Notes: generated by a model not told the origin, from the letters alone. DNA of 32,000 nt from Acaryochloris marina S15 (GCF_018336915.1 NZ_CP064924.1:270001-302000), one strand, 5' to 3'; numbered from the stretch's first letter, positions 3,884 through 23,196 are shown. Made by a program: numbers and translations.

Positions 3884-5362
3884 CTATGAAGATGAAGGAT
3901 TTTTGGCTTTGGGAAGTCCTAGTTTTTGGCGAAACGGATCTGAATAGGTGGCTATCTGCCAGTTCAAAGCTGCTTTTACTTGTGCTGGTGTGATTTCTAG
4001 CACCCCTTTGAGATCGGCCCCTTTGAGATCGGCCCCTTTGAGATCGGCCCCTTTGAGATTGGCCCCTTCGAGATCGGCCCCTTTGAGATTGGCCCCTTCG
4101 AGATTGGCCCTGTAGAGCTTGGCCCCTTCGAGATTGGCCCTGTAGAGCTTGGCCTCTTCGAGATTGGCCCCTTGGAGATCGGCCCCTTTGAGCTTGGCCC
4201 CTTCGAGATTGGCCCTGTAGAGCTTGGCCTCTTCGAGATTGGCCCCTTGGAGATCGGCCCCTTTGAGCTTGGCCCCTTCGAGATCGGCCCCTTTGAGATT
4301 GGCCCCTTCGAGATTGGCCCTGTAGAGCTTGGCCTCTTCGAGATTGGCCCCTTGGAGATTGGCCACTTGGAGATTGGCCCCGTAGAGATAGGCCCCTTTG
4401 AGATTGGCCCCTTCGAGATTGGCCCTGTAGAGCTTGGCCTCTTCGAGATAGGCCCCTTTGAGATTGGCCCCTTTGAGATTGGCCCCGTAGAGCTTGGCCC
4501 CTTTGAGATTGGCCCCTTTGAGATTGGCCCTGTAGAGATTGGCCTCTTCGAGATTGGCCCCTTTGAGATAGGCCCCTTTGAGATTGGCCCCTTGGAGATT
4601 GGCCCCTTTGAGATTGGCCCCGTAGAGCTTGGCCTCTTCGAGATTGGCCCCGTAGAGATTGGCCCCGTAGAGATTGGCTTTGGATAACTCGGAACTGCTG
4701 AGGTTCAGCTCAAGTCTGCTAATGATATGCGCTTCTATCAAAAAACGCATAACACTACCTTTTCTTACTGAGTCATCTTCAAATCTCCGCAGGATAGATA
4801 ATGTCCTGGCTCGAATAACATCCAATGAAGAATCTAATAGCTCTTGCTCTTCCCGTATTCCATCGGGCAGTTGTTGTGATTCTCCTTCGCCTGAACTCTT
4901 GGTGTCACGGACCTTTGCAGAAATAGCCAGCAAATTCTTGTCAACCAAGAGTACTGATAGTCTGTCAAAGTATCCTTGAAGAATTTCTTCCTTTGCTTCC
5001 TCAGAAGCCAGCTCTCGCTGCTCTCTTGCTGCTGCTTCAGCTTGCTTTAGCTGTATTTGCTGAAATAACACCCCAAGAATTGCTAATGTCAGTGGCACTC
5101 CCAGAAGGCTCATCCAATCCCAAAATGTCTTTCCATCGTCAAATGTGGTTGTTCTAGTTGTCTTTACAGGCTTGCCCAACTTATCTGTTTGGTCAGATTG
5201 AACCGTTTCAGTTGTAACAGACTTCCCTTTCTCAATCCCCCAGCCACCGGGCCATAGCGTTGATCTTAGGCTCCCAAACAGAGACAAAAATACAATGATG
5301 AGTAATGCCCCAAGGATGTTATTCCTTTGTTTGGGGTTGAGTATTACTCTAGGAAACTTCAT
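3884..5362 (-). CDS. Membrane-anchored pentapeptide-repeat protein; cargo of the inserted element
   Basis: 492-aa ORF with two hydrophobic segments (ILGALLIIVFLSLFG; LLGVPLTLAILGVLF) and a coiled charged linker. About 46 consecutive A(N/D/K/Y)Lxx pentapeptides follow. The C-terminal tail LEITPAQVKAALNWQIATYSDPFRQKLGL is shared with the two paralogs in the window. Confidence 0.9.
   Translation of the reverse strand: MKFPRVILNPKQRNNILGALLIIVFLSLFGSLRSTLWPGGWGIEKGKSVTTETVQSDQTDKLGKPVKTTRTTTFDDGKTFWDWMSLLGVPLTLAILGVLFQQIQLKQAEAAAREQRELASEEAKEEILQGYFDRLSVLLVDKNLLAISAKVRDTKSSGEGESQQLPDGIREEQELLDSSLDVIRARTLSILRRFEDDSVRKGSVMRFLIEAHIISRLELNLSSSELSKANLYGANLYGANLEEAKLYGANLKGANLQGANLKGAYLKGANLEEANLYRANLKGANLKGAKLYGANLKGANLKGAYLEEAKLYRANLEGANLKGAYLYGANLQVANLQGANLEEAKLYRANLEGANLKGADLEGAKLKGADLQGANLEEAKLYRANLEGAKLKGADLQGANLEEAKLYRANLEGAKLYRANLEGANLKGADLEGANLKGADLKGADLKGADLKGVLEITPAQVKAALNWQIATYSDPFRQKLGLPKAKNPSSS
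4004..4682. repeat. 15-bp tandem DNA repeat array (about 46 units) encoding the pentapeptide repeats
   Basis: Near-identical 15-mers such as GAGATTGGCCCCTTC, GAGATCGGCCCCTTT and GAGCTTGGCCTCTTC recur without interruption. The periodicity is visible directly in the nucleotide sequence and leaves long antisense frames open. Confidence 0.9.
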
Positions 5363-5539: not shown

Positions 5540-6142
5540 ATGATTTTCATCATTTCTGGTTTTGTGACACTAATTCTGGAGCAGCGTCAAATAATTCTGG
5601 AATGTACATTGAGTGAGGTTACCCTGATTGGGGCTAACCTGATTGGGGCTAGTCTGAGCGAGGCTAATCTGAGCGAGGCTAATCTGATTGGGGCTAACTT
5701 GAGTACAGTTGACCTGATTGGGGCTAACCTGATTGGGGCTAGTCTGAGCGAGGCTAATCTGAGCGAGGCTAATCTGAGCGAGGCTAACCTGAGTACAGTT
5801 GACCTGAGTGAGGCTAACATGAGTGAGGCTAATCTGCGTAAGGCTAACTTGAGTGGGGCTAACCTGTATAGGGCTAATCTGCGTAAGGTTAACCTTACTC
5901 AGGTTAACCTGATTAGGGCTGTCCTGAATGGGGCTAATTTGCGTAGGGCTAACCTGTATAGGGCTAACCTGAATGGGGCTAATTTGCGTAAGGCTAAAGA
6001 CATCACCCCAGACCAGGTCAAGGAAGCCACGAACTGGGAACAGGCAACCTACAGTGATGACTTCAAAGCCGAACTAGGACTAACAGCCATCCCTGAAGAA
6101 TCCACAGAAAACCCTGAAGAACAGCCCCCACCCCAAAATTAA
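5540..6142 (+). pseudogene. 3' fragment of the interrupted pentapeptide-repeat gene. The homologous part is 5614-6142. The first 24 codons are element-derived and create a possible chimeric ORF.
   Basis: Pentapeptide repeats (ANLIG, ASLSE, ANLSE and others) followed by KDITPDQVKEATNWEQATYSDDFKAELGL, the same tail as the paralogs. The N-terminus MIFIISGFVTLILEQRQIILECTL is encoded inside the right end of the element, including the TIR. Confidence 0.8.
5565..5608 (-). repeat. Right terminal inverted repeat of the inserted element
   Basis: Reverse complement matches 3663-3706 at 38 of 44 positions. The outer 14 and inner 15 nt are identical, and the mismatches cluster in the middle. Confidence 0.85.
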
Positions 6143-10043: not shown

Positions 10044-10410
10044 TAGTGCTTTTAAGATAGTACTAAAGACCTATTACTTTAAAGCACTATTACTTTAAAG
10101 CACTATTACACTAAAGTCCTATTGCACTAAAAAACAATTAAGCTGAAGTAATATAATTTAATAGTGAAATTGTGCGAATATTTATTATTTCAAAAGTTCT
10201 ATTGCACTAAACTACTTTTGCACTAAACTACTATTTAGCTAAAGAGACTTATGCTAAAAGCCCCTAACTGTATAGATTCAAAGATTTTTGAAGGAGGTGT
10301 AGCAGAAGGGAACAAGCTTTATCTCCAATAATTTCAGAGAATTTTATAGATGATTACAGTGGAATAGAGCAACCTTCTTATTGCACTATTTTACTTTTGC
10401 ACTATACTGC
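10041..10410. repeat. Iteron-like repeats; candidate centromere (parS/parC), operator and/or origin region upstream of parA
   Basis: Four tandem 16-bp units lie at 10071-10134 (CTATTACTTTAAAGCA x2, CTATTACACTAAAGTC, CTATTGCACTAAAAAA). An inverted half site TAATAGTGC is at 10041-10049. Further copies lie at about 10199-10260 (CTATTGCACTAAA, CTACTTTTGCACTAAA, CTACTATTTAGCTAAAG) and about 10376-10410. An AT-rich spacer sits between the clusters. Related copies follow the partner gene at 11770-11803. Confidence 0.7.
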
Positions 10411-10478: not shown

Positions 10479-11339
10479 ATGCCCAAACAAGCACCGACTC
10501 TTGTTCCTCTAGCGCTAGCAGGAGGACAAGGTAAAACCACAATTGCATTAATGACTGGGAGGATATTAGCGAGTTATGGCATCCCTGTACTATTTGTGGA
10601 TGCAGATCCACAAGCAAGTCTTACAGCTTTTCTTGGTGTAGACCCAGAAGATCGCCCAACTCTCTTGGAAGTTCTAACGCGATCTCCCGACAAACTACCT
10701 TTGTTCAAAGCCATACATGCTGTTCCAGAAAGTGAAAATATTTTTCTTATTCCATCTACTGATGAACTAGAGAATGCAAACCACTCATTAGCAGCATCAC
10801 CATCAAGTATCAATGTACTAAGAAATCGAATTCAACAAGTTGGCGAACAGGTAAAGAAAGAAGAAAAAATCACATCCAATTTTGGGATTATCATCATTGA
10901 CCCACCCCCAGAACGCTCACACCTTGCTCTCACTTCTCTGGGTAGTGGCGACTGCTGGGTTATTTGTGCCGAAGCTAATATTAAAGGTGTTCAATCACTC
11001 AAAAGAACAAAAGGATTAATTGAAACTTGTCAGTCAATGGTTCCTGCAGGTGAATTAATTGGGACAATACCTTTTCGAGCGAAATGGACTGGTTTGAACC
11101 CAACTAAAGTCACGAGAACCAACATTGAAGTCATGGAAGTCCTCGTTGGGAAAGATTTAATGCTTCCCCATGTATTAGAAAGTGATATTTACAAACGTGC
11201 AATAGACGAGCAAACTTTACCAGGAACACTGGGATATGAGCATTTAGAATTTCCGCTAAGGAGTCTTATCGAAAGAATGAGACCCTCACTCGGAAAATAC
11301 GCGAAGTCAATTCCAGTCTTGAATACGGAGGAAAATTAA
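10479..11339 (+). CDS. parA: ParA-family partition ATPase (small, type Ib-like)
   Basis: 286-aa ORF with a deviant Walker A context (LALAGGQGKTTIALMTG), then VLFVDADPQASLT and a Walker B-like IIIIDPPP. Confidence 0.85.
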   Translation: MPKQAPTLVPLALAGGQGKTTIALMTGRILASYGIPVLFVDADPQASLTAFLGVDPEDRPTLLEVLTRSPDKLPLFKAIHAVPESENIFLIPSTDELENANHSLAASPSSINVLRNRIQQVGEQVKKEEKITSNFGIIIIDPPPERSHLALTSLGSGDCWVICAEANIKGVQSLKRTKGLIETCQSMVPAGELIGTIPFRAKWTGLNPTKVTRTNIEVMEVLVGKDLMLPHVLESDIYKRAIDEQTLPGTLGYEHLEFPLRSLIERMRPSLGKYAKSIPVLNTEEN

Positions 11340-12731: not shown

Positions 12732-13832
12732 TTGGATACCTCACAAAAAACTAGTCTAAACCCAACAAGATTACCCTTGCTGGTCTGTGGTAGCTTGCTC
12801 GTCGTCGCTCTACTGATAGGAGTTTGGAAATTACCCCAGCGTCAAGCATCCATGCTCAAACAGCGAATCGAGAGGGAAGAGAATACTGCGATTTCCCGCG
12901 AGAAACTATTTCAGCTTGAAAATACGACTCGTGAGAATTACTTGAAAATCATTCAATCATTTGGTGGACTTGGCTTTCTTTTGACAGGCTACTTTGCTTG
13001 GAGGAACTTGCAAATGGCTGAGAAAAATCGTGAACTTGCAGAGGGTAAGCAGGTAACAGAGCGCTTTAGCAAAGCTGTTGAACTTCTCTCCGATTCTAAG
13101 AAGCTTGAGGCCCGTATAGGTGGAATTTATATACTAGGCCGTATTGCTAATGATCATCCTAAAGATCAAATAACTGTGATGGAGGTACTAACAACCTTTA
13201 TTCGAGAAAAATCGTTAGGAAGTGACCTTGAATGCCAATGTGATGAAGAGTATAGTAACGCTGACATCCAATCTGCCCTTAATGTTATCGGCCGTCGTAA
13301 CGTTGAAAATGATGGAGTTAGAGGATTGTTTCTTTATGGTTCAAATCTAAGTGGTGTAGATCTTTGCGATACTAATTTCAGTAATACTGTCTTCAGTATG
13401 TGTGATCTCAGTAATGCCTATCTCCGTAAAACTAAGCTAATTAATACAAATTTTTCTGGTACTAAAATTAAAAAGACAAAGCTATGTGGAGCTTTTTTTA
13501 GTGGTGCTAACCTTAGCGGTGCTAACCTTAGCAGTACTGATCTAAGTGAATCTGATCTTACTGATGCTGACCTAAGTGAATCCGATCTAAGTGAATCTGA
13601 TCTTACTGATGCTGACCTAAGTGAATCCAATCTCACTGATGCTATTTTGAGTAGTGCCAACCTGAAGAGAGCTAACCTAAAAAGAGCAGATCTTCGTGAG
13701 ACTAAAGAAATAACTCCTAATCAGATCAAACAAGCAAGTAATTGGGAGCAAGCTCACTACAGCGACGATTTCAAAATTCAACTAGGACTATCAACCACCT
13801 CTGAAGAGTCAGCAGAAAAGCCCGAAGAATAG
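12732..13832 (+). CDS. Membrane-anchored pentapeptide-repeat protein; intact paralog of the interrupted gene
   Basis: 366-aa ORF with a TTG start. It has TM segments, then VTERFSKAVELLSDSKKLEARIGGIYILGRIANDHPKDQITVMEVLTTFIRE. Pentapeptide repeats follow (ANLSG, TDLSE, SDLTD, ADLSE and others), then the tail KEITPNQIKQASNWEQAHYSDDFKIQLGL. Confidence 0.85.
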   Translation: MDTSQKTSLNPTRLPLLVCGSLLVVALLIGVWKLPQRQASMLKQRIEREENTAISREKLFQLENTTRENYLKIIQSFGGLGFLLTGYFAWRNLQMAEKNRELAEGKQVTERFSKAVELLSDSKKLEARIGGIYILGRIANDHPKDQITVMEVLTTFIREKSLGSDLECQCDEEYSNADIQSALNVIGRRNVENDGVRGLFLYGSNLSGVDLCDTNFSNTVFSMCDLSNAYLRKTKLINTNFSGTKIKKTKLCGAFFSGANLSGANLSSTDLSESDLTDADLSESDLSESDLTDADLSESNLTDAILSSANLKRANLKRADLRETKEITPNQIKQASNWEQAHYSDDFKIQLGLSTTSEESAEKPEE

Positions 13833-14470
13833 TCCAACAAAATCGATCGACCATAAAAATCCCCTTTCTGCTCAATCTTAAATCCACCCAATAGCAGCCC
13901 AAGCCAAACCGCTACCAAAGGTAATCGAACTCCCCTCACCAGCTCCACAAACGACACCGCCCCCTTAGCCCCTTCCAAATACTCTCGGATCGCGCCCACC
14001 CATGCCCCCACATCTTCTACATGACTGACTTTCAGGGCAACTGCTTCCCCAGACTCCAGCTCATCGACAAACTCTAGAACCGCATCCTTACTAACTTCCC
14101 CCACAACAGACTCAACAGGAACCCCAGTGAACCCCTGGCGACTCTTCCGTGACTTCGGCTGACGACATAGATCCGAGACATCCAGAAACATCGTCTGCTG
14201 AATCATCCCAGCTAAGAAATCTTCATCCAACACTGGACCTTCTGAGTTGTATCTGTCTTCCCAACCCTGGATCATTAGCTCTGCCCGCTGCAAACAAACC
14301 TCAGCCATATCCTTGATCGCATCTCCAGCTACCCGGAGCTGTTCGTGGGGAGAACGGCCCTGTAGATGCTGCTCCAGTGAGGCACACATCAGGGAAATAT
14401 CAGCTTGCTCTGGTTCGTCTAAAGCAGAGGCCAAAGCACTGGCAAAATCAAGCTCAAGCTGAGTGAACAT
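13778..14470 (-). CDS. Hypothetical acidic protein
   Basis: 230-aa ORF, GC-rich, with its start overlapping the stop of the upstream ORF by 17 nt. Its 3' end overlaps the convergent pentapeptide gene by 55 nt. No family recognised. Confidence 0.55.
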   Translation of the reverse strand: MFTQLELDFASALASALDEPEQADISLMCASLEQHLQGRSPHEQLRVAGDAIKDMAEVCLQRAELMIQGWEDRYNSEGPVLDEDFLAGMIQQTMFLDVSDLCRQPKSRKSRQGFTGVPVESVVGEVSKDAVLEFVDELESGEAVALKVSHVEDVGAWVGAIREYLEGAKGAVSFVELVRGVRLPLVAVWLGLLLGGFKIEQKGDFYGRSILLDYSSGFSADSSEVVDSPS

Positions 14471-14981
14471 GGCGCTTATCCTTCAGTGGACATTCCGCAA
14501 TTTCACACTCGGTCGGTTCCATGCGGATCGGGGGTTCAAATTCTGTGATGCCATACCGATTGCCCAGCACCTTCAGCACCTCCTTCAAATACCGATTCAC
14601 TTGGGTATTCGTCATCCCCATACAGTGGACGGCTTCAATTTCCGCTAGCTTCTCACTCCCCTGCCAGACAGCGATAGCCAGAGCATGGAGGTGAGCATCC
14701 TTGGGCTTTTCCTTGTAAAGATAGAGCAAAGCCACGGGTGGGGCCAGGACGGGAATCGAGAAGGTTTCAGTGGTTTTTGCTGGCGCTGTTTTTGCTTTCT
14801 GGTCAGCGTATTCTCCTCGGCGCTTGGCATTGCTTTCTTTGCGGTGGCGATAGTGATTTCGTTTGCGATCGCAGGCATTATCCTTCCAGCACCCATCCCC
14901 TTGCGGCCCATGAACCCGCTTTGCTTCCATCCGGGAATAGTCGATGCATTGGAGGCAGATGGGGTTTGGAGGTAGTGGCAT
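14454..14981 (-). CDS. Hypothetical protein with a Cys-containing basic N-terminal region and a possible C-terminal HTH
   Basis: 175-aa ORF with CLQC...C...C followed by a Lys/Arg-rich stretch. The C-terminal part MTNTQVNRYLKEVLKVLGNRYGI is helix-turn-helix-like. The alternative-frame ORFs 14645-15022, 14685-14975 and 14738-15010 look like compositional shadows. Confidence 0.55.
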   Translation of the reverse strand: MPLPPNPICLQCIDYSRMEAKRVHGPQGDGCWKDNACDRKRNHYRHRKESNAKRRGEYADQKAKTAPAKTTETFSIPVLAPPVALLYLYKEKPKDAHLHALAIAVWQGSEKLAEIEAVHCMGMTNTQVNRYLKEVLKVLGNRYGITEFEPPIRMEPTECEIAECPLKDKRHVHSA

Positions 14982-15294: not shown

Positions 15295-18200
15295 ATGACG
15301 AGTCCGAGCCCAGAACAGCAAACCATTCTATTTCTTGCCAGCAACCCTGATGGATTGCGACAAGTCGGACGAGAATTACGCGACATTAAAAACGGGTTAC
15401 GCAGATCTGAGCATCGAGATCAGTTCACTCTATGTCCCTGCCTGGATGTACGTACTAAAGATATTCAACGGGCATTATTGGATGAAACGCCTCAGATAAT
15501 TCACTTCGCTGGCAGTGGCAAAGGAGAAGCAGGACTCGTCTTTGAAGATCAAGCAGGCAATCCCAAACTTGTCGCAAGTGCAGCCCTAGCAGGTCTATTT
15601 ACTCTGTTTGCTGAGGACATCCACTGCGTCATTCTGAATGGGTGTTATACCCAGGTGCAAGCTCAAGCCATCGCTCAACATATTGATTATGTAGTAGGCA
15701 TGCAGCAGGCCATCAGCCACGAAGCGGCCCTGGCCTTTGCCGTGGGTTTCTATGATGCCTTGGGTGCAGGCCGAGACATTGAATTTGCCTTTAAGTTGGG
15801 ATGCAGTGCCATTCAAATAGAAGGCTTACCCGAATCTCTCACCCCGGTGTTGGTCCAAAAATCTAGCCTTCAATCCGCACCCCTCCACCCCTTACCCGAA
15901 CAGCAGACTCATGAAAAACTCTGGAAAGTGCCAGAGTTACCCCCCCACTTTTTACCGCGTCCTCAGACCCTAAAAGCCCTAAGAGAGAAGGTCCTTACGG
16001 ATCTAGCCCAGCCTGTCGTCATGACCGGGCAACGCGTCGGTGTTCAGGGTATGGGAGGCATTGGCAAGTCGGTGTTGGCCACAGCCCTAGCTCGTGACCC
16101 TCAAGTTCAATCGGCATTCCCTGACGGTATTTATTGGCTAACCGTGGGGATAGAACCCAACCTACTGGCTCAGCAAATCGCTCTAGCAGCAGCCCTCTGT
16201 GGTGAACGCCAGGTATTTGAAGATATCAATGAAGGGAAAAACCGCCTCCAAACCCTATGGCAAGGACGCCAAAGTCTATTGATTCTAGATGATGTCTGGT
16301 GCATCGCGGATGCTGACGTCTTCAATGTCCTGGGACATCAAAGTACCTTGGTAGTGACGACCCGTGACTCAGAATTAATCACAGGATTAGGGGCCACTGA
16401 CTTTTCCCTTTCGGTACTCCATGAGGATCAGGCGCTGGAGTTATTAGCCGCCTGGGTGGGCGTCCCCATCTCAGATCTACCCTCCCAAGCCCAGGAAGTA
16501 GCAAGAGAATGTGGCAACTTGCCCTTAGCCCTGGCCCAATGTGGTGCAATGGTGCGAGATTTAACCCCTTGGCCCCATGTTCTCAGTGCCTTACAAGATT
16601 CAGATCTTGAATTTATCCAAAAACAGTTTAGTCATTATTCCTACCCCGATGTCTTCAAAGCCCTGCATGTCAGTGCAACGGTCTTAGCAGAAACCAACCC
16701 CATCGCTGCCGAACGCTATCAAGAACTGGCAGTGTTTCCAGCCGATGAATTGATTCCTGAAGCAGTCATTGTTCGCCTATGGCAATATACCGGAGTATTA
16801 AAGGAGCGAGATGCGGGCAAAATCCTAACCACCTTATCGAGTAAAGCCATGCTGCGGCTAGAGGGGGACTATCCCCAGCGGCAAGTCAGCCTCCATGACT
16901 TACAGCAGGATTATTTACAAGCCCAGCAAGCCGACCAGAAGGCATTGCATCAGCAACTTCTGGAGGCTTATCACCAGGGCTGTCCAGAGGGATGGCATTG
17001 TGGACCGAAGGACGGGTATTTCTTTGAGCATTTGGCCCATCACCTCCAGCAGGCAGAACGCACCGATGAGTTACGGCAATTACTCTGGGACTATCGTTGG
17101 ATTCAACGCAAATTGGGAGTCACTGATATCAATGCCCTGCTATTGGACTATGAAACCTTACCCAAGGACCAAGACCTCAACAGTGTCCACAGTGGGTTAC
17201 GGTTATCTAGCCATGTATTAAATCAGCATCCTGAGCAGCTTCCCAGTCAGCTCTTTGGGCGTTTGATGAGTCAAGATTCACCCCATGTGACCGCATTGAC
17301 TCAATCTTTAGCTCAGGGACCGGGAGAATGCTGGATACGGTGTCTATTCCCCCATCTCAACCAAGCGGGGGGAGCATTAGTGCGCACCCTCACCGGACAT
17401 ACTTCCACTGTCTATGGCGTGAGCATCAGCCCCGATGGCCAAACCGTAGTCTCCGCGTCTTGGGACCAGACCCTGAAGGTGTGGGACCTGGAGACGGGCC
17501 AGGAGCAGCGCACCCTCACCGGACATACTAGCCTTGTCAATGGCGTGAGCATCAGCCCCGATGGCCAAACCGTAGTCTCCGCGTCTTGGGACAAGACCCT
17601 GAAGGTATGGGACCTGGCGACGGGCCAGGAGCAGCGCACCCTCACCGGACATATTGCCTCTGTCAATGGCGTGAGCATCAGCCCCGATGGCCAAACCGTA
17701 ATCTCCGCATCTAGTGACCATACCCTGAAGGTGTGGGATCTGGAGACGGGCCAGGAACAGCGCACCCTCACCGGACATACTGACTATGTCGAGGGCGTGA
17801 GCATCAGCCCCGATGGCCAAACCGTAGTCTCCGCGTCTAGGGACCAGACCCTGAAGGTGTGGGACCTGGAGACGGGCCAGGAGCAGCGCACCCTCACCGG
17901 ACATACTGACCCTGTCTATGGCGTCAGCATCAGCTCCGATGGCCAAACCGTAGTCTCCGCGTCTGGTGACCAGACCCTGAAGGTGTGGGACCTGGCGACG
18001 GGCCAGGAGCAGCGCACCCTCACCGGACATACTGCCTCTGTCGAGGGCGTGAGCATCAGCTCCGATGGCCAAACCGTAGTCTCCGCGTCTGGTGACCATA
18101 CCCTGAAGGTGTGGGACCTGGAGACGGGCCAGGAGCAGCGCACCCTCACCGGACATACTGCCTCTGTCGAGGGCGTGAGCATCAGCTCCGATGGCCAAAC

Positions 18201-19293
18201 CGTGGTCTCCGCGTCTGATGACCATACCCTGAAGGTGTGGGACCTGGAGACGGGCCAGGAGCAGCGCACCCTCACCGGACATACTGCCTCTGTCGAGGGC
18301 GTGAGCATCAGCTCCGATGGCCAAACCGTAGTCTCCGCGTCTGGTGACCATACCCTGAAGGTGTGGGACCTGGAGACGGGCCAGGAGCAGCGCACCCTCA
18401 CCGGACATACTTCCCTTGTCCATGGCGTGAGCATCAGCCCCGATGGCCAAACCGTAGTCTCCGCGTCTAAGGACCAGACCCTGAAGGTGTGGGACCTGGA
18501 GACGGGCCAGGAGCAGCGCACCCTCACCGGACATACTGCCTCTGTCACTGGCGTCAGCATCAGCCCCGATGGCCAAACCGTCGTCTCCGCGTCTTGGGAC
18601 AATACCCTGAAGGTGTGGGACCTGGAGACGGGCCAGGAGCAGCGCACCCTCACCGGACATACTGCCTATGTCACTGGCGTGAGCATCAGCCCCGATGGCC
18701 AAACCCTTGTCTCCACGTCTTTGGACAAGACCCTGAAGGTGTGGGACCTGGAGACGGGCCAGGAGCAGCGCACCCTCACCGGGCATACTGACCCTGTCAC
18801 TGGCGTGAGCATCAACCCCGATGGCCAAACCGTCGTCTCCGCGTCTTGGGACTGTACCCTGAAGGTGTGGGACCTGGAGACGGGCCAGGAGCAGCGCACC
18901 CTCACCGGACATACTTCCACTGTCACTGGCGTCAGCATCAGCCCCGATGGCCAAACCGTCGTCTCCGCGTCTTGGGACTGTACCCTGAAGGTGTGGGACC
19001 TGGAGACGGGCCAGGAGCAGCGCACCCTCACCGGACATACTGCCCCTGTCAATGGCGTGAGCATCAGCCCCGATGGCCAAACCCTTGTCTCCGCGTCTGA
19101 TGACCATACCCTGAAGGCATGGGACCTGCTGACCGGCATGGAAGTGATGAGCTTCACGGGAGAAGGTGCATTTCAATGTTGTGAGATTGCCCTAGATGGT
19201 CGCACCGTCATTGCTGGAGATGCTGGGGGACAGCTTTACTTTCTGCGGCTAGAAGGCCCCAGCTTTTCAGACGACGGGGAGGTTATCTCATGA
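15295..19293 (+). CDS. Apaf-1/NLR-like STAND NTPase: N-terminal caspase/CHAT-like domain, NB-ARC, then 14 near-identical WD40 repeats and 1 degenerate one
   Basis: 1332 aa.
- N-terminal domain (about 190 aa) has a caspase-like strand/helix pattern with IIHFAGSG ... VILNGCYT.
- NB-ARC motifs: P-loop GMGGIGKS, Walker B LLILDDVW, VVTTRD, a GLPL-type GNLPLAL, and an MHD-type LHD (VSLHDLQ).
- C-terminus: 14 x 42-aa units LTGHTxxVxGVSISPDGQTVVSASxDxTLKVWDLETGQEQRT plus a degenerate 15th blade. Confidence 0.9.
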   Translation: MTSPSPEQQTILFLASNPDGLRQVGRELRDIKNGLRRSEHRDQFTLCPCLDVRTKDIQRALLDETPQIIHFAGSGKGEAGLVFEDQAGNPKLVASAALAGLFTLFAEDIHCVILNGCYTQVQAQAIAQHIDYVVGMQQAISHEAALAFAVGFYDALGAGRDIEFAFKLGCSAIQIEGLPESLTPVLVQKSSLQSAPLHPLPEQQTHEKLWKVPELPPHFLPRPQTLKALREKVLTDLAQPVVMTGQRVGVQGMGGIGKSVLATALARDPQVQSAFPDGIYWLTVGIEPNLLAQQIALAAALCGERQVFEDINEGKNRLQTLWQGRQSLLILDDVWCIADADVFNVLGHQSTLVVTTRDSELITGLGATDFSLSVLHEDQALELLAAWVGVPISDLPSQAQEVARECGNLPLALAQCGAMVRDLTPWPHVLSALQDSDLEFIQKQFSHYSYPDVFKALHVSATVLAETNPIAAERYQELAVFPADELIPEAVIVRLWQYTGVLKERDAGKILTTLSSKAMLRLEGDYPQRQVSLHDLQQDYLQAQQADQKALHQQLLEAYHQGCPEGWHCGPKDGYFFEHLAHHLQQAERTDELRQLLWDYRWIQRKLGVTDINALLLDYETLPKDQDLNSVHSGLRLSSHVLNQHPEQLPSQLFGRLMSQDSPHVTALTQSLAQGPGECWIRCLFPHLNQAGGALVRTLTGHTSTVYGVSISPDGQTVVSASWDQTLKVWDLETGQEQRTLTGHTSLVNGVSISPDGQTVVSASWDKTLKVWDLATGQEQRTLTGHIASVNGVSISPDGQTVISASSDHTLKVWDLETGQEQRTLTGHTDYVEGVSISPDGQTVVSASRDQTLKVWDLETGQEQRTLTGHTDPVYGVSISSDGQTVVSASGDQTLKVWDLATGQEQRTLTGHTASVEGVSISSDGQTVVSASGDHTLKVWDLETGQEQRTLTGHTASVEGVSISSDGQTVVSASDDHTLKVWDLETGQEQRTLTGHTASVEGVSISSDGQTVVSASGDHTLKVWDLETGQEQRTLTGHTSLVHGVSISPDGQTVVSASKDQTLKVWDLETGQEQRTLTGHTASVTGVSISPDGQTVVSASWDNTLKVWDLETGQEQRTLTGHTAYVTGVSISPDGQTLVSTSLDKTLKVWDLETGQEQRTLTGHTDPVTGVSINPDGQTVVSASWDCTLKVWDLETGQEQRTLTGHTSTVTGVSISPDGQTVVSASWDCTLKVWDLETGQEQRTLTGHTAPVNGVSISPDGQTLVSASDDHTLKAWDLLTGMEVMSFTGEGAFQCCEIALDGRTVIAGDAGGQLYFLRLEGPSFSDDGEVIS
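17389..19152 (+). repeat. 14 tandem 126-bp repeats, in frame, encoding WD40 blades
   Basis: Direct inspection shows an exact 126-bp period starting at CTCACCGGACATAC. Units 6-8 are nearly identical at the DNA level. Differences between units fall in a few codons. Confidence 0.95.
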
Positions 19294-19429: not shown

Positions 19430-20527
19430 ATGACTGCCCAAACCATTCTCTTTCTCGCTGCGAATCCCAAAGATACTAAGACTCTTCGATTGGATCAGGA
19501 GTTAAGGGATATTGGTGAGGGTTTACAGCAGGCTCAACGTCGAGATGAGTTTAAGCTTGAACAGCGCCTGGCGGTTCGCCCCCATGATATTCAGCGGGCC
19601 ATGCTAGATCTGAATCCCCAGATCGTTCATTTCTCAGGCCATGGGAATGGGGATGAGGGCTTGGCCTTTGAGGATGTCAGTGGTAATACCCAGTTGGTCA
19701 GTGGTGAGGCGATTGCTGACCTGTTTAGCCTGTTTGCCGATCAACTGCGCTGCGTAGTCCTCAATGGCTGCTATACCGAGGTGCAAGCAAAGGCCATCTC
19801 GGAACATATTCCCTATGTTATCGGTATGAAACGGGCGATTGGGGATAAAGCGGCGATCTCCTTTGCCGTGGGATTCTATGATGCCCTGGGCTCTGGTCGA
19901 GATGTGGAGTTTGCCTTTAAGTTGGGCTGTGCCGCTATCCGCATGGAAGGCATTGAAGAACATCTCACCCCCGTTCTGATTAAAAAGCCCATTACTGAGG
20001 AAACTAAGGATCAGGATCAACCCAATGCTCAAACTCCTCCAACACCCGCGCCTTCTCCCATGACTCCAGACGCCGATGGACCCTTAGAGGTCTTTATTTC
20101 CTATTCCCATAAAGACGATGATTTACGAGAAGAGTTAGACATCCATCTTTCCAATCTGAAACGACAGGGGAAAATTGCTGCTTGGCATGATCGGGCGATT
20201 GAAGCAGGGGAAGAATGGGAAGCTCAAATCAAAGGCCATCTGGAGTCCGCTCAAATCATTCTGCTACTGGTCAGCCCACCCTTTATGGCCTCTGACTATT
20301 GCTACGACATTGAGATGCAACGAGCGATAGACCGCCATAACGAAGGCACAGCCCGAGTCATCCCTATTATTCTGCGTCCCTGTGACTGGAAAGGGTCACC
20401 CTTCAGTAAGCTGAAGATACTCCCTAAAGATGCCAAGCCCGTGACGAAATGGGCTGATCGCGATGAGGCATTCTTGGATGTCGTCAAAGGAATACGGAGG
20501 GCGGTAGAGTCCCTGACAAAAAAGTAG
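19430..20527 (+). CDS. Caspase/CHAT-like domain fused to a TIR domain (putative effector)
   Basis: The N-terminal domain is about 60% identical (100/163 positions, hand alignment) to the N-terminus of 15295-19293, but has an intact HFSGHG ... VLNGCYT dyad pattern. A Pro/Thr linker follows, then a TIR signature: VFISYSHKDD...GKIAAWHDRAIEAGEEW...IILLLVSPPFMASDYCYDIEMQRA, with a conserved Glu candidate. The preferred start is ATG 19430 (MTAQTILFLAANP, parallel to the MTSPSPEQQTILFLASNP N-terminus of 15295-19293) rather than the ORF-track GTG 19388. Confidence 0.85.
   Translation: MTAQTILFLAANPKDTKTLRLDQELRDIGEGLQQAQRRDEFKLEQRLAVRPHDIQRAMLDLNPQIVHFSGHGNGDEGLAFEDVSGNTQLVSGEAIADLFSLFADQLRCVVLNGCYTEVQAKAISEHIPYVIGMKRAIGDKAAISFAVGFYDALGSGRDVEFAFKLGCAAIRMEGIEEHLTPVLIKKPITEETKDQDQPNAQTPPTPAPSPMTPDADGPLEVFISYSHKDDDLREELDIHLSNLKRQGKIAAWHDRAIEAGEEWEAQIKGHLESAQIILLLVSPPFMASDYCYDIEMQRAIDRHNEGTARVIPIILRPCDWKGSPFSKLKILPKDAKPVTKWADRDEAFLDVVKGIRRAVESLTKK
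20518..20524 (+). promoter_or_regulatory. Candidate -1 ribosomal frameshift or slippage site: A AAA AAG followed immediately by a 0-frame TAG
   Basis: The last two sense codons of the TIR ORF are AAA AAG preceded by A. This is the same heptamer as the E. coli dnaX -1 site. The -1 frame is open from 20467 and runs without a stop into the NB-ARC-TPR ORF. GGAGG lies about 17-21 nt upstream. No convincing downstream hairpin was found by eye. Confidence 0.35.
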
Positions 20528-20676
20528 ACCACTCTTCGTCAGGACTCAGTCCACCAACGGAGAGTCATCAGGGCCAGGGACCAGAAGCCTCGTCATCTTC
20601 TCAGGCAAGTCCCCCTCATAACCTCCCTCGCAGCGGTGTCGTTGAATTTGTCGGTCGTGAACAAACGCTGCAGGAC

Positions 20677-23196
20677 TTGCACCAGCTCCTCCAAAAGAAC
20701 AATCCAGTAGCCCTTACTGCATTAGCAGGCATGGGTGGGATCGGAAAGACTGAACTTGCCCTGCAATATGCCATCTCCCAGCTCGATCAGGGTCAGTACC
20801 CTGGAGGACTTTGCTGGCTGCGAGTGAAAGGCCAGGCTCTAGCTGCCCAAATTATCGAATTTGCCCGGACCAAGTTGGCACTGGCCCTTCCGGATGGACT
20901 CAATGAAGATCAACAGGTGAGTTATATCTGGGGGCAATGGCCCACCGGAAAGGTGCTGATTATTTTTGATGATGTAAAGGACCTTGAGACCATCGAACCG
21001 TACTTACCGCCGTCAGACCCACGGTATAAAGTACTGATTACAACCCGACAGGATTTAGGTCTATCCGATCATTCCCTTTCCATTAAAGAACTGAGCGATA
21101 CCAGTGCCTTATCCCTGCTGAGAACCCTAGTTGGAGCAGACCGAATTGATGCTCAGCTCGACGATGCTCAAGCCTTATGTGGATGGGTGGGTAAATTGCC
21201 CTTAGGACTAGAGTTAGTGGGACGGTATCTAGCCAGAAAGCCAGACTGGTCCCTCCAAAAGCTGATCAAGCGACTTGAATCCAAGCGATTACAAGCCAAA
21301 GCCCTGACGACTCCAGCATCAGGAATGACCGCACAGTTTGGGGTCGCTGCTGCACTGGAATTAAGCTGGGTAGAGCTGAATGAGGCAGAGCAGGAACTGG
21401 CTTGCTTTTTGGGGATGTTTGCGGTTGCTCCTATTCCTTGGACTTTGGTTGAAGGATGTCTATCCGAACAGGATAAGGATGACTTAGAAGACATCAGAGA
21501 TGAAGGTTTGAAAGATAGGAACCTACTCAAACGAATAGAAGAGAGTACCTACCAACTCCATCAAATTGTTCAGGAGTTCTTTCGGATTAAGTTGAATGAG
21601 GATTCCGAACAGGGGAAATCCCTCAAAGCCGCTTATTGCAGAGGAATGGTTGCAGTTGCTCAGGGTATTAATCAGAATCCAACGATTGATGTGATTGCAG
21701 GGATGAGTGCCAGCATTCCCCATCTAGAGGAACTGATCCGACAGTGGATTGACCACCTCGGTGATGATGAATTGATGTGGCCCTATGTCGGTATTGGTCG
21801 ATTTTATGAAGGGCAAGGGAACTATGCATTGGCTTTACCTTGGTATCAAAAATGCCTAGAACAGACTCAACAAAGATTGGGCAATGAACACACCGATGTC
21901 GCAACTAGCCTCAATAACCTGGCAGGACTCTACAAAAACCAAGGACGATATGAGGAAGCAGAACCCCTCTATACACAAGCCCTACAGATGAGACAGAAGC
22001 CATTGGGCAATGAACACCCCGATGTCGCAACTAGCCTCAATAACCTGGCATTACTCTACGACAGCCAAGGACGGTATGAGGAGGCAGAACCCCTCTATAC
22101 ACAAGCCCTACAGATGACACAGAAGCTCTTGGGCAATGAACACCCCGATGTCGCTCTTAGCCTCAATAACCTGGCAGGACTCTACGACAACCAAGGACGG
22201 TATGAGGAGGCAGAACCCCTCTATACACAAGCCCTACAGATGAAAAAGAAGCTCTTGGGCAATGAACACCCCTCTGTCGCAAGTAGCCTCAATAACCTGG
22301 CAGGACTCTACAAAAACCAAGGACGGTATGAGGAGGCAGAACCCCTCTATACACAAGCCCTACAGATGACACAGAAGCTCTTGGGCAATGAACACCCCTC
22401 TGTCGCAAGTAGCCTCAATAACCTGGCAGCACTCTACGAGAACCAAGGACGGTATGAGGAGGCAGAACCCCTCTATACACAAGCCCTACAGATGAGACAG
22501 AAGCTCTTGGGCAATGAACACCCCTATGTCGCGACTAGCCTCAATAACCTGGCAGGACTCTACAAAAACCAAGGACGGTATGAGGAGGCAGAACCCCTCT
22601 ATACACAAGCCCTACAGATGACACAGAAGCTCTTGGGCAATGAACACCCCTCTGTCGCAAGTAGCCTCAATAACCTGGCAGCACTCTACGACAACCAAGG
22701 ACGGTATGAGGAGGCAGAACCCCTCTATACACAAGCCCTACAGATGAGACAGAAGCTATTGGGCAATGAACACCCCGATGTCGCAACTAGCCTCAATAAC
22801 CTGGCATTACTCTACGACAACCAAGGACGGTATGAGGAGGCAGAACCCCTCTATACACAAGCCCTGCAGATGAAAAAGAAGCTCTTGGGCAATGAACACC
22901 CCTCTGTCGCAAGTAGCCTCAATAACCTGGCAGGACTCTACAAAAACCAAGGACGGTATGAGGAGGCAGAACCCCTCTATACACAAGCCCTACAGATGAG
23001 ACAGAAGCTCTTGGGCAATGAACACCCCTCTGTCGCGACTAGCCTCAATAACCTGGCATTACTCTACAAAAACCAAGGACGGTATAAGGAGGCCAAATCT
23101 AATTTAAAGCAAGCACTAAAGATAGTAGAGGTCGTCTTGGGTCCAGAGCATCCTTCTACTCGGACCATGCGAAACAACTTAGAGTCCATCCCCTAG
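20677..23196 (+). CDS. NB-ARC STAND NTPase with a C-terminal TPR array (kinesin-light-chain-type 42-aa units). The coding frame is open upstream to 20467 with no start codon.
   Basis: P-loop GMGGIGKTELA, Walker B VLIIFDDV, ITTRQ, a GLPL-type GKLPLGLE, and an MHD-position LHQ. About 10 units follow of the form LLGNEHPxVAxSLNNLAxLYxNQGRYEEAEPLYTQALQMxxK. The ORF-track TTG start (20677) falls inside the conserved pre-P-loop helix ...GVVEFVGREQTLQDL|HQLLQ. The real N-terminus therefore lies upstream. Confidence 0.85.
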   Translation: MHQLLQKNNPVALTALAGMGGIGKTELALQYAISQLDQGQYPGGLCWLRVKGQALAAQIIEFARTKLALALPDGLNEDQQVSYIWGQWPTGKVLIIFDDVKDLETIEPYLPPSDPRYKVLITTRQDLGLSDHSLSIKELSDTSALSLLRTLVGADRIDAQLDDAQALCGWVGKLPLGLELVGRYLARKPDWSLQKLIKRLESKRLQAKALTTPASGMTAQFGVAAALELSWVELNEAEQELACFLGMFAVAPIPWTLVEGCLSEQDKDDLEDIRDEGLKDRNLLKRIEESTYQLHQIVQEFFRIKLNEDSEQGKSLKAAYCRGMVAVAQGINQNPTIDVIAGMSASIPHLEELIRQWIDHLGDDELMWPYVGIGRFYEGQGNYALALPWYQKCLEQTQQRLGNEHTDVATSLNNLAGLYKNQGRYEEAEPLYTQALQMRQKPLGNEHPDVATSLNNLALLYDSQGRYEEAEPLYTQALQMTQKLLGNEHPDVALSLNNLAGLYDNQGRYEEAEPLYTQALQMKKKLLGNEHPSVASSLNNLAGLYKNQGRYEEAEPLYTQALQMTQKLLGNEHPSVASSLNNLAALYENQGRYEEAEPLYTQALQMRQKLLGNEHPYVATSLNNLAGLYKNQGRYEEAEPLYTQALQMTQKLLGNEHPSVASSLNNLAALYDNQGRYEEAEPLYTQALQMRQKLLGNEHPDVATSLNNLALLYDNQGRYEEAEPLYTQALQMKKKLLGNEHPSVASSLNNLAGLYKNQGRYEEAEPLYTQALQMRQKLLGNEHPSVATSLNNLALLYKNQGRYKEAKSNLKQALKIVEVVLGPEHPSTRTMRNNLESIP
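21871..23130 (+). repeat. About 10 tandem 126-bp repeats, in frame, encoding TPR pairs
   Basis: Exact 126-bp periodicity with very high DNA identity between units. The last unit diverges in its second half. Confidence 0.9.

Follow-up and report, generated by a model that had tools for sequence, protein, structure and literature searches.

The 32,000-nucleotide (nt) window analysed here, the whole stretch of DNA from Acaryochloris marina S15 deposited as NZ_CP064924.1:270001-302000 (assembly GCF_018336915.1), is cyanobacterial plasmid DNA. It carries the gene for an NLR-like STAND protein of 1332 amino acids (aa) that ends in a long array of almost identical WD40 blades, in which five codons per blade hold most of the amino-acid differences. 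The array is most probably the ligand-sensing domain of this plasmid-borne NLR-like STAND ATPase, of the type known from WRAP, with a recombining scaffold and diversifying selection at codons of the top face of the propeller; a probability of about 0.7 is assigned to this reading as a whole.

The NLR-like gene and its WD40 array

The domains of the 1332-aa protein follow one another, from the N- to the C-terminus, as CHAT-like, NB-ARC, APAF1_C and 14+1 WD40 blades (the WD40 part covering aa 699-1328; Table 1). The NB-ARC translation shows the Walker A motif GMGGIGKS, the Walker B motif LLILDDVW and GNLPLA. This is the tripartite layout of NLR proteins, with an N-terminal effector or adaptor, a central NOD and a C-terminal repeat sensor. 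The protein clusters at 90 % identity with the A. marina NB-ARC proteins WP_249370341 and WP_235112363, the members of the cluster being NB-ARC proteins of A. marina S15 (plasmid) and of Acaryochloris sp. 'Moss Beach', and the megablast matches to the region were to Acaryochloris plasmids only. The 1332-aa protein is a plasmid-borne NLR-like STAND protein and the WD40 array is its probable sensor domain.

Tandem Repeats Finder (TRF) located the repeat at 17382-19128 with a period of 126 bp (13.9 copies, 93 % matches, score 2855), in agreement with an in-frame cut of the sequence from position 17389, and Pfam assigned WD40 to 14 stretches (4.1e-170). An earlier note on this DNA, made from the sequence alone, had described 14 consecutive near-identical 126-bp units, as was found; it had placed the end at 19260, which was corrected since the gene actually ends at 19293. 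Units are numbered here from L1-T2-G3-H4, and the WD40 tetrad H4, S22, D26 and W32 is invariant in all 14. The mean pairwise identity of the 14 units was 90.6 % at the nucleotide and 85 % at the amino-acid level. Units 1-13 were mutually 88-100 % identical in nucleotide sequence, and unit 14 was 80-84 % identical to them because its 3' end (GMEVMS) is unique.

Units 6-8 are near-duplicates, as had been noticed before: units 6 and 8 show no difference at all (100 % identity), and 2 nt separate unit 7 from each of them (98 %). The exact self-match of 163 nt at an offset of 252 (17997-18159 against 18249 onward) points to a very recent local duplication, and the P15S marker is confined to the adjacent units 5-8, all four of which carry it. 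Units 12 and 13 both have W-D-C, i.e. the SWDC variant reported for them, and all the residue strings listed in the earlier note were found, with TDPVT and TSTVT seen in addition.

Unit 15 showed 31-35 % nucleotide identity to the other units and therefore constitutes a divergent terminal blade outside the DNA repeat. The earlier count of 15 blades holds as a total, with the qualification that the last of them is degenerate and does not belong to the repeat. The terminal FTGEGAF...EVIS end is common to all six arrays that were compared, which are those of the window (14 full units and the terminal blade, 14+1), of plasmids pREB8 (L004; 13+1) and pREB7 (L006; 13+1, with diverged units) of strain MBIC11017, of Moss Beach plasmid pMB06 (L005; 13+1), of an S15 plasmid known here as protein only (P0001; 8+1) and of Moss Beach CP071721 (L001; 1+1).

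A minus-strand open reading frame (ORF) of 599 aa (17377-19176) and other antisense or off-frame ORFs in the array were rejected as genes, the plus frame being contiguous with NB-ARC and matching WD40 at 4e-170; such long ORFs occur because the repeat unit has no stops in those frames. For the highly repetitive WD40 arrays the G+C content at third codon positions (GC3) was 0.76-0.78, as against 0.48-0.50 for the N-terminal part of the same genes (15295-17388 in the window) and for the genes nearby; the diverged pREB7 array gave 0.63. The high values could stem from a founder-unit effect or from GC-biased conversion.

Table 1. Features located in the window (one-based positions of the whole stretch)
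Feature	Position	Strand	Basis
Pentapeptide-repeat protein gene	3884-5362	-
15-bp-period array in the preceding gene	4003-4678
Pentapeptide-repeat protein gene	5540-6142	+
15-bp-period array in the preceding gene	5610-5982
16-bp direct repeats	10062-10243
ParA-like gene	10479-11339
Pentapeptide-repeat protein gene	12732-13832	+
15-bp-period array in the preceding gene	13498-13643
Two overlapping hypothetical genes (230 and 175 aa)	13778-14981	-	no Pfam match
NLR-like STAND gene, 1332 aa	15295..19293	+	ORF list, Pfam, PADLOC
CHAT-like (caspase-fold) N-terminal domain, aa 18-175	15346..15819	+	PADLOC 'chat' 9.5e-17; Pfam CHAT weak
NB-ARC, aa 246-460	16030..16674	+	Pfam PF00931 5.1e-27
APAF1_C helical domain, aa 549-623	16939..17163	+	Pfam PF17908 1.8e-12
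14 highly repetitive 126-bp (42-aa) WD40 units	17389..19152	+	TRF, unit table, Pfam WD40
Hypervariable codons of unit k, with unit start s = 17389+126(k-1)	s+15..s+20 (6, 7); s+24..s+26 (9); s+72..s+74 (25); s+78..s+80 (27)
Units 6-8, very recent local duplication	18019..18396	+	identity matrix, self-match
Degenerate terminal blade (unit 15) and C-terminal tail	19153..19290 (unit 15 = 19153-19278)	+	conserved in all paralogues
CHAT-like + TIR effector gene	19430..20527	+	Pfam TIR_2 2.8e-16, CHAT 1.9e-9; PADLOC ThsB-like TIR 6.5e-63
NB-ARC + TPR gene	frame 20467..23196	+	Pfam NB-ARC 4.9e-14, TPR_12 1.7e-164
Candidate -1 frameshift cassette	20518..20569	+	A_AAA_AAG 20518-20524, TAG 20525-20527, 6-nt spacer, hairpin 20531-20565
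Ten highly repetitive 126-bp (42-aa) TPR units	21877..23136	+	TRF period 126, 9.7 copies, 93 % matches

Probable selection on five codons per blade

The amino-acid entropy over the 14 units lay at 1.5-2.5 bits for unit positions 6, 7, 9, 25 and 27, and all other positions stayed under 1 bit; these 5 of 42 codons hold most of the amino-acid differences. The ratio of non-synonymous to synonymous substitutions (dN/dS) was calculated by the Nei-Gojobori method. For units 1-13 of the window it amounted to 9.0 at the five hypervariable codons (proportions of non-synonymous and synonymous differences, pN 0.54 and pS 0.10) and 0.29 in the other 37, in comparison to 26 and 0.52 for the respective codon classes of pREB8 and 12 and 0.30 for those of pMB06. 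Alleles instead of pairs were counted as a second check, and the extra alleles were amino-acid changing or synonymous in a proportion of 20:1 in the hypervariable codons and 7:8 in the rest (Fisher p = 0.0015). Five codons per blade gain almost only non-synonymous differences and the other 37 are under purifying selection. The confinement of variation to a few codons, stated in the earlier note by eye, is thereby quantified by entropy and by dN/dS per codon class, and the codon-level alignment of units which it had proposed as a check favours the diversifying reading.

Since the choice of codons by their variability could bias this comparison, the hypervariable set was redefined on other arrays. 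The five positions of highest entropy were exactly 6, 7, 9, 25 and 27 in each of the S15 (P0001), pREB8 and pMB06 arrays, taken independently. When the other arrays were pooled, position 38 displaced position 27 because the diverged pREB7 array dominates the pool, so the definition made array by array is the cleaner control. The top-five lists of 26 other highly repetitive NB-ARC-WD40 homologues, drawn from other cyanobacteria and from metagenomes, included position 25 in 22 cases, positions 6, 7 and 9 in 21 cases each and position 27 in 16. The same positions are variable in most of these homologues and the pattern therefore belongs to the family, not to this gene alone.

Variation restricted to fixed codons might also be the work of a diversity-generating retroelement (DGR) or similar machinery rewriting the five codons, and in multicellular bacteria, cyanobacteria among them, putative antigen sensors of conflict systems are reported to be diversified by DGRs (PMC10907252, PMC7517822). 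Pfam, however, detected no reverse transcriptase among the 16 largest ORFs of the window, no template repeat is present, and at the first and second positions of the variable codons each of the four bases occurs, in place of an adenine-specific pattern. Moreover, the reverse transcriptase near the CP071721 locus is of the group II intron type (RVT_1 + GIIM + HNH), and the same codon pattern is met in many unrelated genomes. Targeted hypermutation, extremely improbable on these grounds, was rejected.

Predicted position of the variable residues on the propeller

The top face of a WD40 propeller is formed by the connections between strands d and a and between strands b and c. Residues 671-1332 were modelled with AlphaFold from the single sequence, with a mean predicted local distance difference test score (pLDDT) of 74.9. 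In the model all 14 units have four strands (a 8-13, b 19-24, c 28-33, d 39-2); the d-a loop contains positions 6 and 7, strand a has position 9 as its second residue, and the Asp of the three-residue b-c turn stands between positions 25 and 27. Positions 15 and 35, which vary mildly, fall in bottom loops. According to Wu et al. (PMC3419727) the interaction hotspot R1 sits in a (V/L/I)-R1-R2-(V/L/I) motif, R1-2 two residues earlier, and D-1 precedes the tetrad Asp. Applied to V8-x9-G10-V11 and x25-D26, the rule identifies positions 9, 7 and 25 as R1, R1-2 and D-1, and positions 6 and 27 (R1-3 and D+1) neighbour these canonical hotspots. The loops of the model and the published rule support a predicted location of the hypervariable residues on the top, ligand-contact face, in line with the expectation of the earlier note.

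The top Foldseek matches of the model were tandem-propeller proteins (probability 1.00). Model confidence dips at the boundary of units 7 and 8, and the pLDDT of blade 15 is below 50. The 14+1 units of the window add up to 15 blades and the 13+1 units of three of the five related arrays to 14, as in the 7+7 WRAP structure; the extra blade of the window looks like a very recent one-unit gain. The 7+8 arrangement as in Apaf-1, suggested in the earlier note, would be one possible division of the 15 blades.

Turnover of units and contact residues among related plasmids

The non-repeat 2.1 kb of the gene differs from that of the window by 5.2 % of nucleotides in pMB06, 5.9 % in CP071721, 9.2 % in pREB7 and 11.6 % in pREB8, and the S15 protein P0001 is 96 % identical to the window's protein over the non-repeat part at the amino-acid level. 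A comparison of repeat number and content in related strains, suggested in the earlier note, gave 14, 13, 13, 13, 8 and 1 full units among strains and paralogues, with contact residues that were fully different. No complete hypervariable combination is common to the window and any related array, even when the positionally anchored first and last units are considered, and the 62 units of the six arrays hold 59 distinct combinations. Loop triplets and turn pairs are re-assorted, W-K being paired with 10 different d-a triplets. The single unit of CP071721 is a hybrid with the start of a first unit and the end of a last unit, which is what deletion by recombination would leave. Unit number thus changes between loci, and the window has gained one unit or more very recently. 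Uneven variation, predicted location on the top face and turnover at the level of strains all favour the rapidly diversifying recognition surface that had been proposed from the sequence.

Homogenisation of the units was assessed separately. The pREB8 array diverges by 3.8 % within itself, less than the 7.8 % between arrays, and at two nucleotide columns (one of them synonymous) the pREB8-type base occurs in 11 of 12 pREB8 units and in none of 13 window units. These two results, together with the copy-number differences, the identical unit pair and the presence of P15S in units 5-8, provide moderate support for homogenisation. The claim is limited by the pREB7 array, since its units are 13.8 % apart from those of pREB8 and not shared with them within one genome, and by its internal divergence of 17 %. 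Ongoing unequal crossing-over or gene conversion, put forward in the earlier note, is therefore retained in part: gain, loss and re-amplification of units are well supported, the evidence for ongoing homogenisation is moderate, and continuous gene conversion is plausible.

Several points weigh against the array being a recombining and diversifying immune sensor. The dN/dS ratios were taken among paralogous units that recombine and not from a formal site model, and the mapping to the top face follows from loop topology and a published rule, not from measured geometry. PADLOC (PADLOC-DB 2.0) matched the NLR-like protein with its 'chat' model only, at the N-terminus, and with no model for the NB-ARC part; Avs and the other anti-phage STAND systems catalogued in the same database gave no NTPase or sensor match. 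For want of a model of the NB-ARC part, the defence role of the module is one that we infer from architecture and context. Some related copies may be decaying: the CP071721 copy (9651-12011 of L001) looks damaged, with the one hybrid unit and the terminal blade left, and so does the pMB06 copy (7298-11172 of L005), which is broken in two, a CHAT fragment of 226 aa and an NB-ARC-WD40 ORF. The NB-ARC-TPR gene of pMB06 is likewise split, and the CP071721 locus is flanked by transposase fragments and the group II intron reverse transcriptase.

A further point of this kind is that the divergence within the window and pMB06 arrays (4.7 %) is about the same as that between them (4.5 %). The values consequently give no support to homogenisation since that split, and descent of both from a single amplified array would account for them equally well. 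The whole array could have been amplified once from a single blade in a recent ancestor and now be diverging, free of ongoing concerted evolution and with the variable sites as its least constrained surface. The closeness of both values to the flank divergence of the two loci would agree with such a history, as would the older-looking, far more diverged pREB7 array and the continuous amplification followed by decay described by Pereira and Lupas (PMC9218822). Neutral surface sites, however, would give a dN/dS near 1 and not 9-26, and in the same units the pN of 0.54 in hypervariable codons stands against a pS of 0.06-0.10. The identity of units 6 and 8, the different copy numbers of close relatives and the spread of pREB8-specific changes through 11 of 12 units also speak against a single amplification, which is considered unlikely.

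Public assemblies are the source of all copy numbers, and short reads are known to mis-assemble where WD40 arrays are highly repetitive, Illumina assemblies having failed on such arrays in Podospora (PMC12222747). The number and order of units and the differences between strains could accordingly reflect mis-assembly or collapse of a 1.8-kb tandem repeat, and the 1+1-unit Moss Beach copy could be such a collapse. Nevertheless, all arrays are in frame with their unique first and last units intact, four of them come from records deposited as complete circular plasmids, and even the units anchored at either end of the array differ in their hypervariable residues. Since mis-assembly cannot yield codon-structured variation at the same five positions, an artefact is regarded as quite improbable.

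The module and its proposed action

The genes for the NB-ARC-WD40, CHAT-like-TIR and NB-ARC-TPR proteins follow one another in this order and on one strand, both in the window and in each of the four related plasmid loci whose DNA was examined. Between the CHAT-like domain of the NLR-like protein and the N-terminal domain of the adjoining TIR protein the identity is 60 % (8e-81), and judging from sequence the former domain is probably a homotypic adaptor. The caspase-fold motif of the NLR-like protein reads IIHFAGSG (15496-15519; Arg replaces the Ser in pREB7) and that of the TIR protein IVHFSGHG (19622-19645), which aligns with the GHG of the solved CHAT protein PDB 8TL0; LNGC is kept in both copies. 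The contrast between Ser or Arg in the NLR-like protein and the His of GHG in the TIR protein was seen in the window and in L001, L004, L005 and L006. As the GHG His is missing from the former copy and present in the latter, the NLR copy may lack catalytic activity and act as an adaptor, and the TIR-protein copy may work as a protease.

In the proposed mechanism, recombination between units by unequal crossing-over, gene conversion and re-amplification would keep the scaffold uniform and reshuffle the blades, and diversifying selection on the top-face residues would alter the ligand of the propeller. Binding of the ligand would release oligomerisation of NB-ARC, and the N-terminal caspase-fold domain would recruit the adjoining CHAT-like-TIR protein by homotypic contact, as the 60 % identity of the two domains suggests. 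The "same domain on core and effector" logic of effector-associated domains has been described (PMC7159879). The ThsB-like TIR would form the output, as an effector that consumes NAD or signals in a conflict response directed against phages or mobile elements, or possibly in self/non-self recognition.

The same array could alternatively serve a housekeeping or signalling platform whose variation reflects several endogenous partners bound blade by blade; many cyanobacterial WD40 proteins are tied to kinases and general signalling by Hu et al. (PMC5587647). This is very improbable in view of the NB-ARC/APAF1_C/TIR/caspase-fold context, the several non-identical copies on conjugative plasmids, the complete turnover of contact residues between close relatives and the existence of damaged copies, all of which fit conflict systems and not conserved partners.

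Comparison with known repeat receptors

The best sequence match of the array was 2YMU (E 1e-213), which was also the best fold match (54 % identity in the fold alignment). According to PMC9218822 and PMC6805158, through which Dunin-Horkawicz 2014 is cited here, 2YMU is the 14-blade WRAP propeller of Nostoc punctiforme, carried by a STAND ATPase that is coupled to a TIR-STAND gene optionally with a caspase domain; the propellers of WRAP relatives have been recently amplified or disrupted, which was read as fast turnover in prokaryotic innate immunity. WRAP and the protein of the window share near-identical 42-residue blades at the C-terminus of a STAND ATPase and the coupling to a TIR gene. The internal blade identity found here is well above 60 %, the array stands at the STAND C-terminus and the neighbouring gene bears a TIR domain, so that the array is of WRAP type. 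The few substitutions of WRAP are non-synonymous, six of them at the position that aligns with window position 9 (R1), and disrupted and variable-length forms were reported for its relatives, as found for those of the window. The two systems differ in that WRAP has 14 almost identical blades (10 differences in 563 residues) whereas the 15-blade window protein has five positions per blade near saturation. Moreover, unlike in WRAP, the window has the caspase-fold domain on both the WD40 and the TIR protein, TIR and NB-ARC-TPR in different frames, and several plasmid copies.

Hu et al. 2017 (PMC5587647) describe highly repetitive prokaryotic WD40 repeats as conserved except at predicted interaction hotspots, and Dyrka et al. 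2020 (10.1101/2020.01.06.895854) give 80-90 % internal identity for WD and TPR repeats of bacterial NLRs and propose a fungal-type regime for them. The window belongs to the same class and adds to the general pattern described there dN/dS per codon class, copy-number differences and a complete hypervariable turnover among plasmid paralogues.

For the fungal HNWD proteins (HET-E/HET-D), Paoletti et al. 2007 (PMC1805685) reported 69 units with 55 combinations, positively selected codons on the interaction surface and polymorphic repeat numbers. They resemble the window in their 42-aa WD40 units of 80-100 % identity and in having nearly one combination per unit (55/69 against 59/62); fungal positions 11, 12, 14, 30 and 32 would correspond to 6, 7, 9, 25 and 27 if, as presumed here, the numbering is offset by 5. 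The fungal proteins combine NACHT with HET, neither of which Pfam finds in the window, where NB-ARC and APAF1_C are accompanied by CHAT-like and TIR domains. They differ also in that repeat-induced point mutation is absent from the window and the fungal function is allorecognition, and the exchange between paralogues of one genome known from HNWD was not seen here, given the distance between the pREB7 and pREB8 units. The parallel drawn in the earlier note is accordingly sound as to the signature, i.e. conservation, surface-codon selection and repeat-number polymorphism, and the gene works like its fungal analogues without being a member of their family.

The Apaf-1 structure 3SFZ was the second-best structural match (E 8e-42). 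Apaf-1 likewise has NB-ARC, APAF1_C and tandem WD40 propellers with 15 blades; it differs by a CARD in place of the CHAT-like domain and by blades that are divergent and not hypervariable. Since the signature has already been published by Hu (2017), Dyrka (2020) and Dunin-Horkawicz (2014) and for the fungal HET-E/D, the locus is a clear new example and no new principle.

Bacterial NLR-like STAND proteins now count as pattern-recognition receptors, and the way in which their sensors gain specificity is much less clear than in plant, animal and fungal NLRs. With this locus, a single genus supplies a small natural series on conjugative plasmids of known sequence, in which six arrays of 1-14 full units combine near-identical scaffolds with fully different contact residues. 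The model of "concerted evolution plus diversifying selection", put forward for the repeats of bacterial NLRs, could be directly tested on it. With its idealised blades, five variable positions and the WRAP crystal structure at hand, the series is also a natural library for specificity mapping. It is tentatively proposed that Acaryochloris plasmids maintain a recombination-driven receptor repertoire, a bacterial counterpart of HET-E/D, with WD40 (and TPR) blades as cassettes and a second receptor that might be made by -1 frameshifting. Unit gain, loss and shuffling together with selection at five codons per blade would then re-specify an innate sensor on the timescale of strain divergence.

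The downstream genes and a frameshift candidate

The ORF listing starts the TIR gene at GTG 19388; a start at ATG 19430 yields 365 aa, the length at which the gene is annotated in four related loci, as a TIR domain protein. The gene ends with ...ACA AAA AAG TAG. The NB-ARC-TPR frame is -1 relative to it and open from 20467, with its first ATG, GTG or TTG at 20677, i.e. after 210 nt without a start. In all five Acaryochloris loci the -1 frame is the only one free of stops over the 153-nt "spacer", whose pN/pS of 0.57 is near the 0.50 of the next 200 codons, and the spacer therefore evolves like coding sequence. The hairpin 6 nt 3' of the heptamer, whose outer pairs reach 20527-20569, has a minimum free energy of -15.2 kcal/mol (z = -2.65) and a consensus fold of -15.7 kcal/mol over the five loci. 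The heptamer arrangement, the stop-free -1 frame and the hairpin are kept in 5/5 loci. The conceptual -1 fusion, with ...SLTKKVDHSSSGL... in its junction peptide, aligns colinearly across the junction with the single-ORF TIR-NB-ARC proteins P0146 and P0129 (53 % identity, 8e-48).

On sequence grounds, the junction is a candidate for programmed -1 frameshifting or for an inherited frameshift mutation. In the former case one mRNA would give a free CHAT-TIR effector and a CHAT-TIR-NB-ARC-TPR fusion. The metagenomic relative L010 contains the module with no -1 junction, its middle gene lacking TIR and its NB-ARC-TPR gene having its own ATG, so the frameshift idea is supported within Acaryochloris only. 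Stand-alone CHAT-TIR genes elsewhere sit in other contexts. PADLOC gave no match for the N-terminal half of the NB-ARC-TPR protein.

The TPR array evolves in the same style as the WD40 array with a different repeat fold: its units are 93 % identical and the variation is concentrated at unit positions 7, 10, 17, 20, 39 and 40. At 839 aa the NB-ARC-TPR protein exceeds its counterparts in pREB7 and pREB8 (671 aa) by 168 aa, the equivalent of four units, a copy-number comparison made from protein length alone, as the unit anchor motif LGNEHP located no units in either of these two loci.

Asn/Gln/Gly-rich motifs stand at three places in the metagenomic module (L010 4854-6100 and protein P0007). They precede the CHAT domain of the middle gene (e.g. 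NNQIIGQSVGSTVVNVSGGTVSIGPQ), follow the CHAT remnant of the WD40 protein ahead of its NB-ARC, and open the NB-ARC-TPR protein at its N-terminus. These motifs recall the amyloid signalling motifs that Dyrka et al. 2020 associate with NLRs and are absent from the genes of the window.

Other features of the window

A ParA-like gene lies upstream of the NLR-like gene, and the 16-bp direct repeats ~240-420 bp upstream of it could be a partition site or iterons. Two overlapping hypothetical genes, upstream of the NLR-like gene and divergent from it, are also present on at least seven other Acaryochloris plasmids that have no match to the NLR module; they are therefore probably plasmid backbone and lie outside the module. 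Each of the three pentapeptide-repeat protein genes contains a 15-bp-period array, the first of which comprises 45 copies with 82 % identity and shows a 105-bp super-period with 90 % identity.

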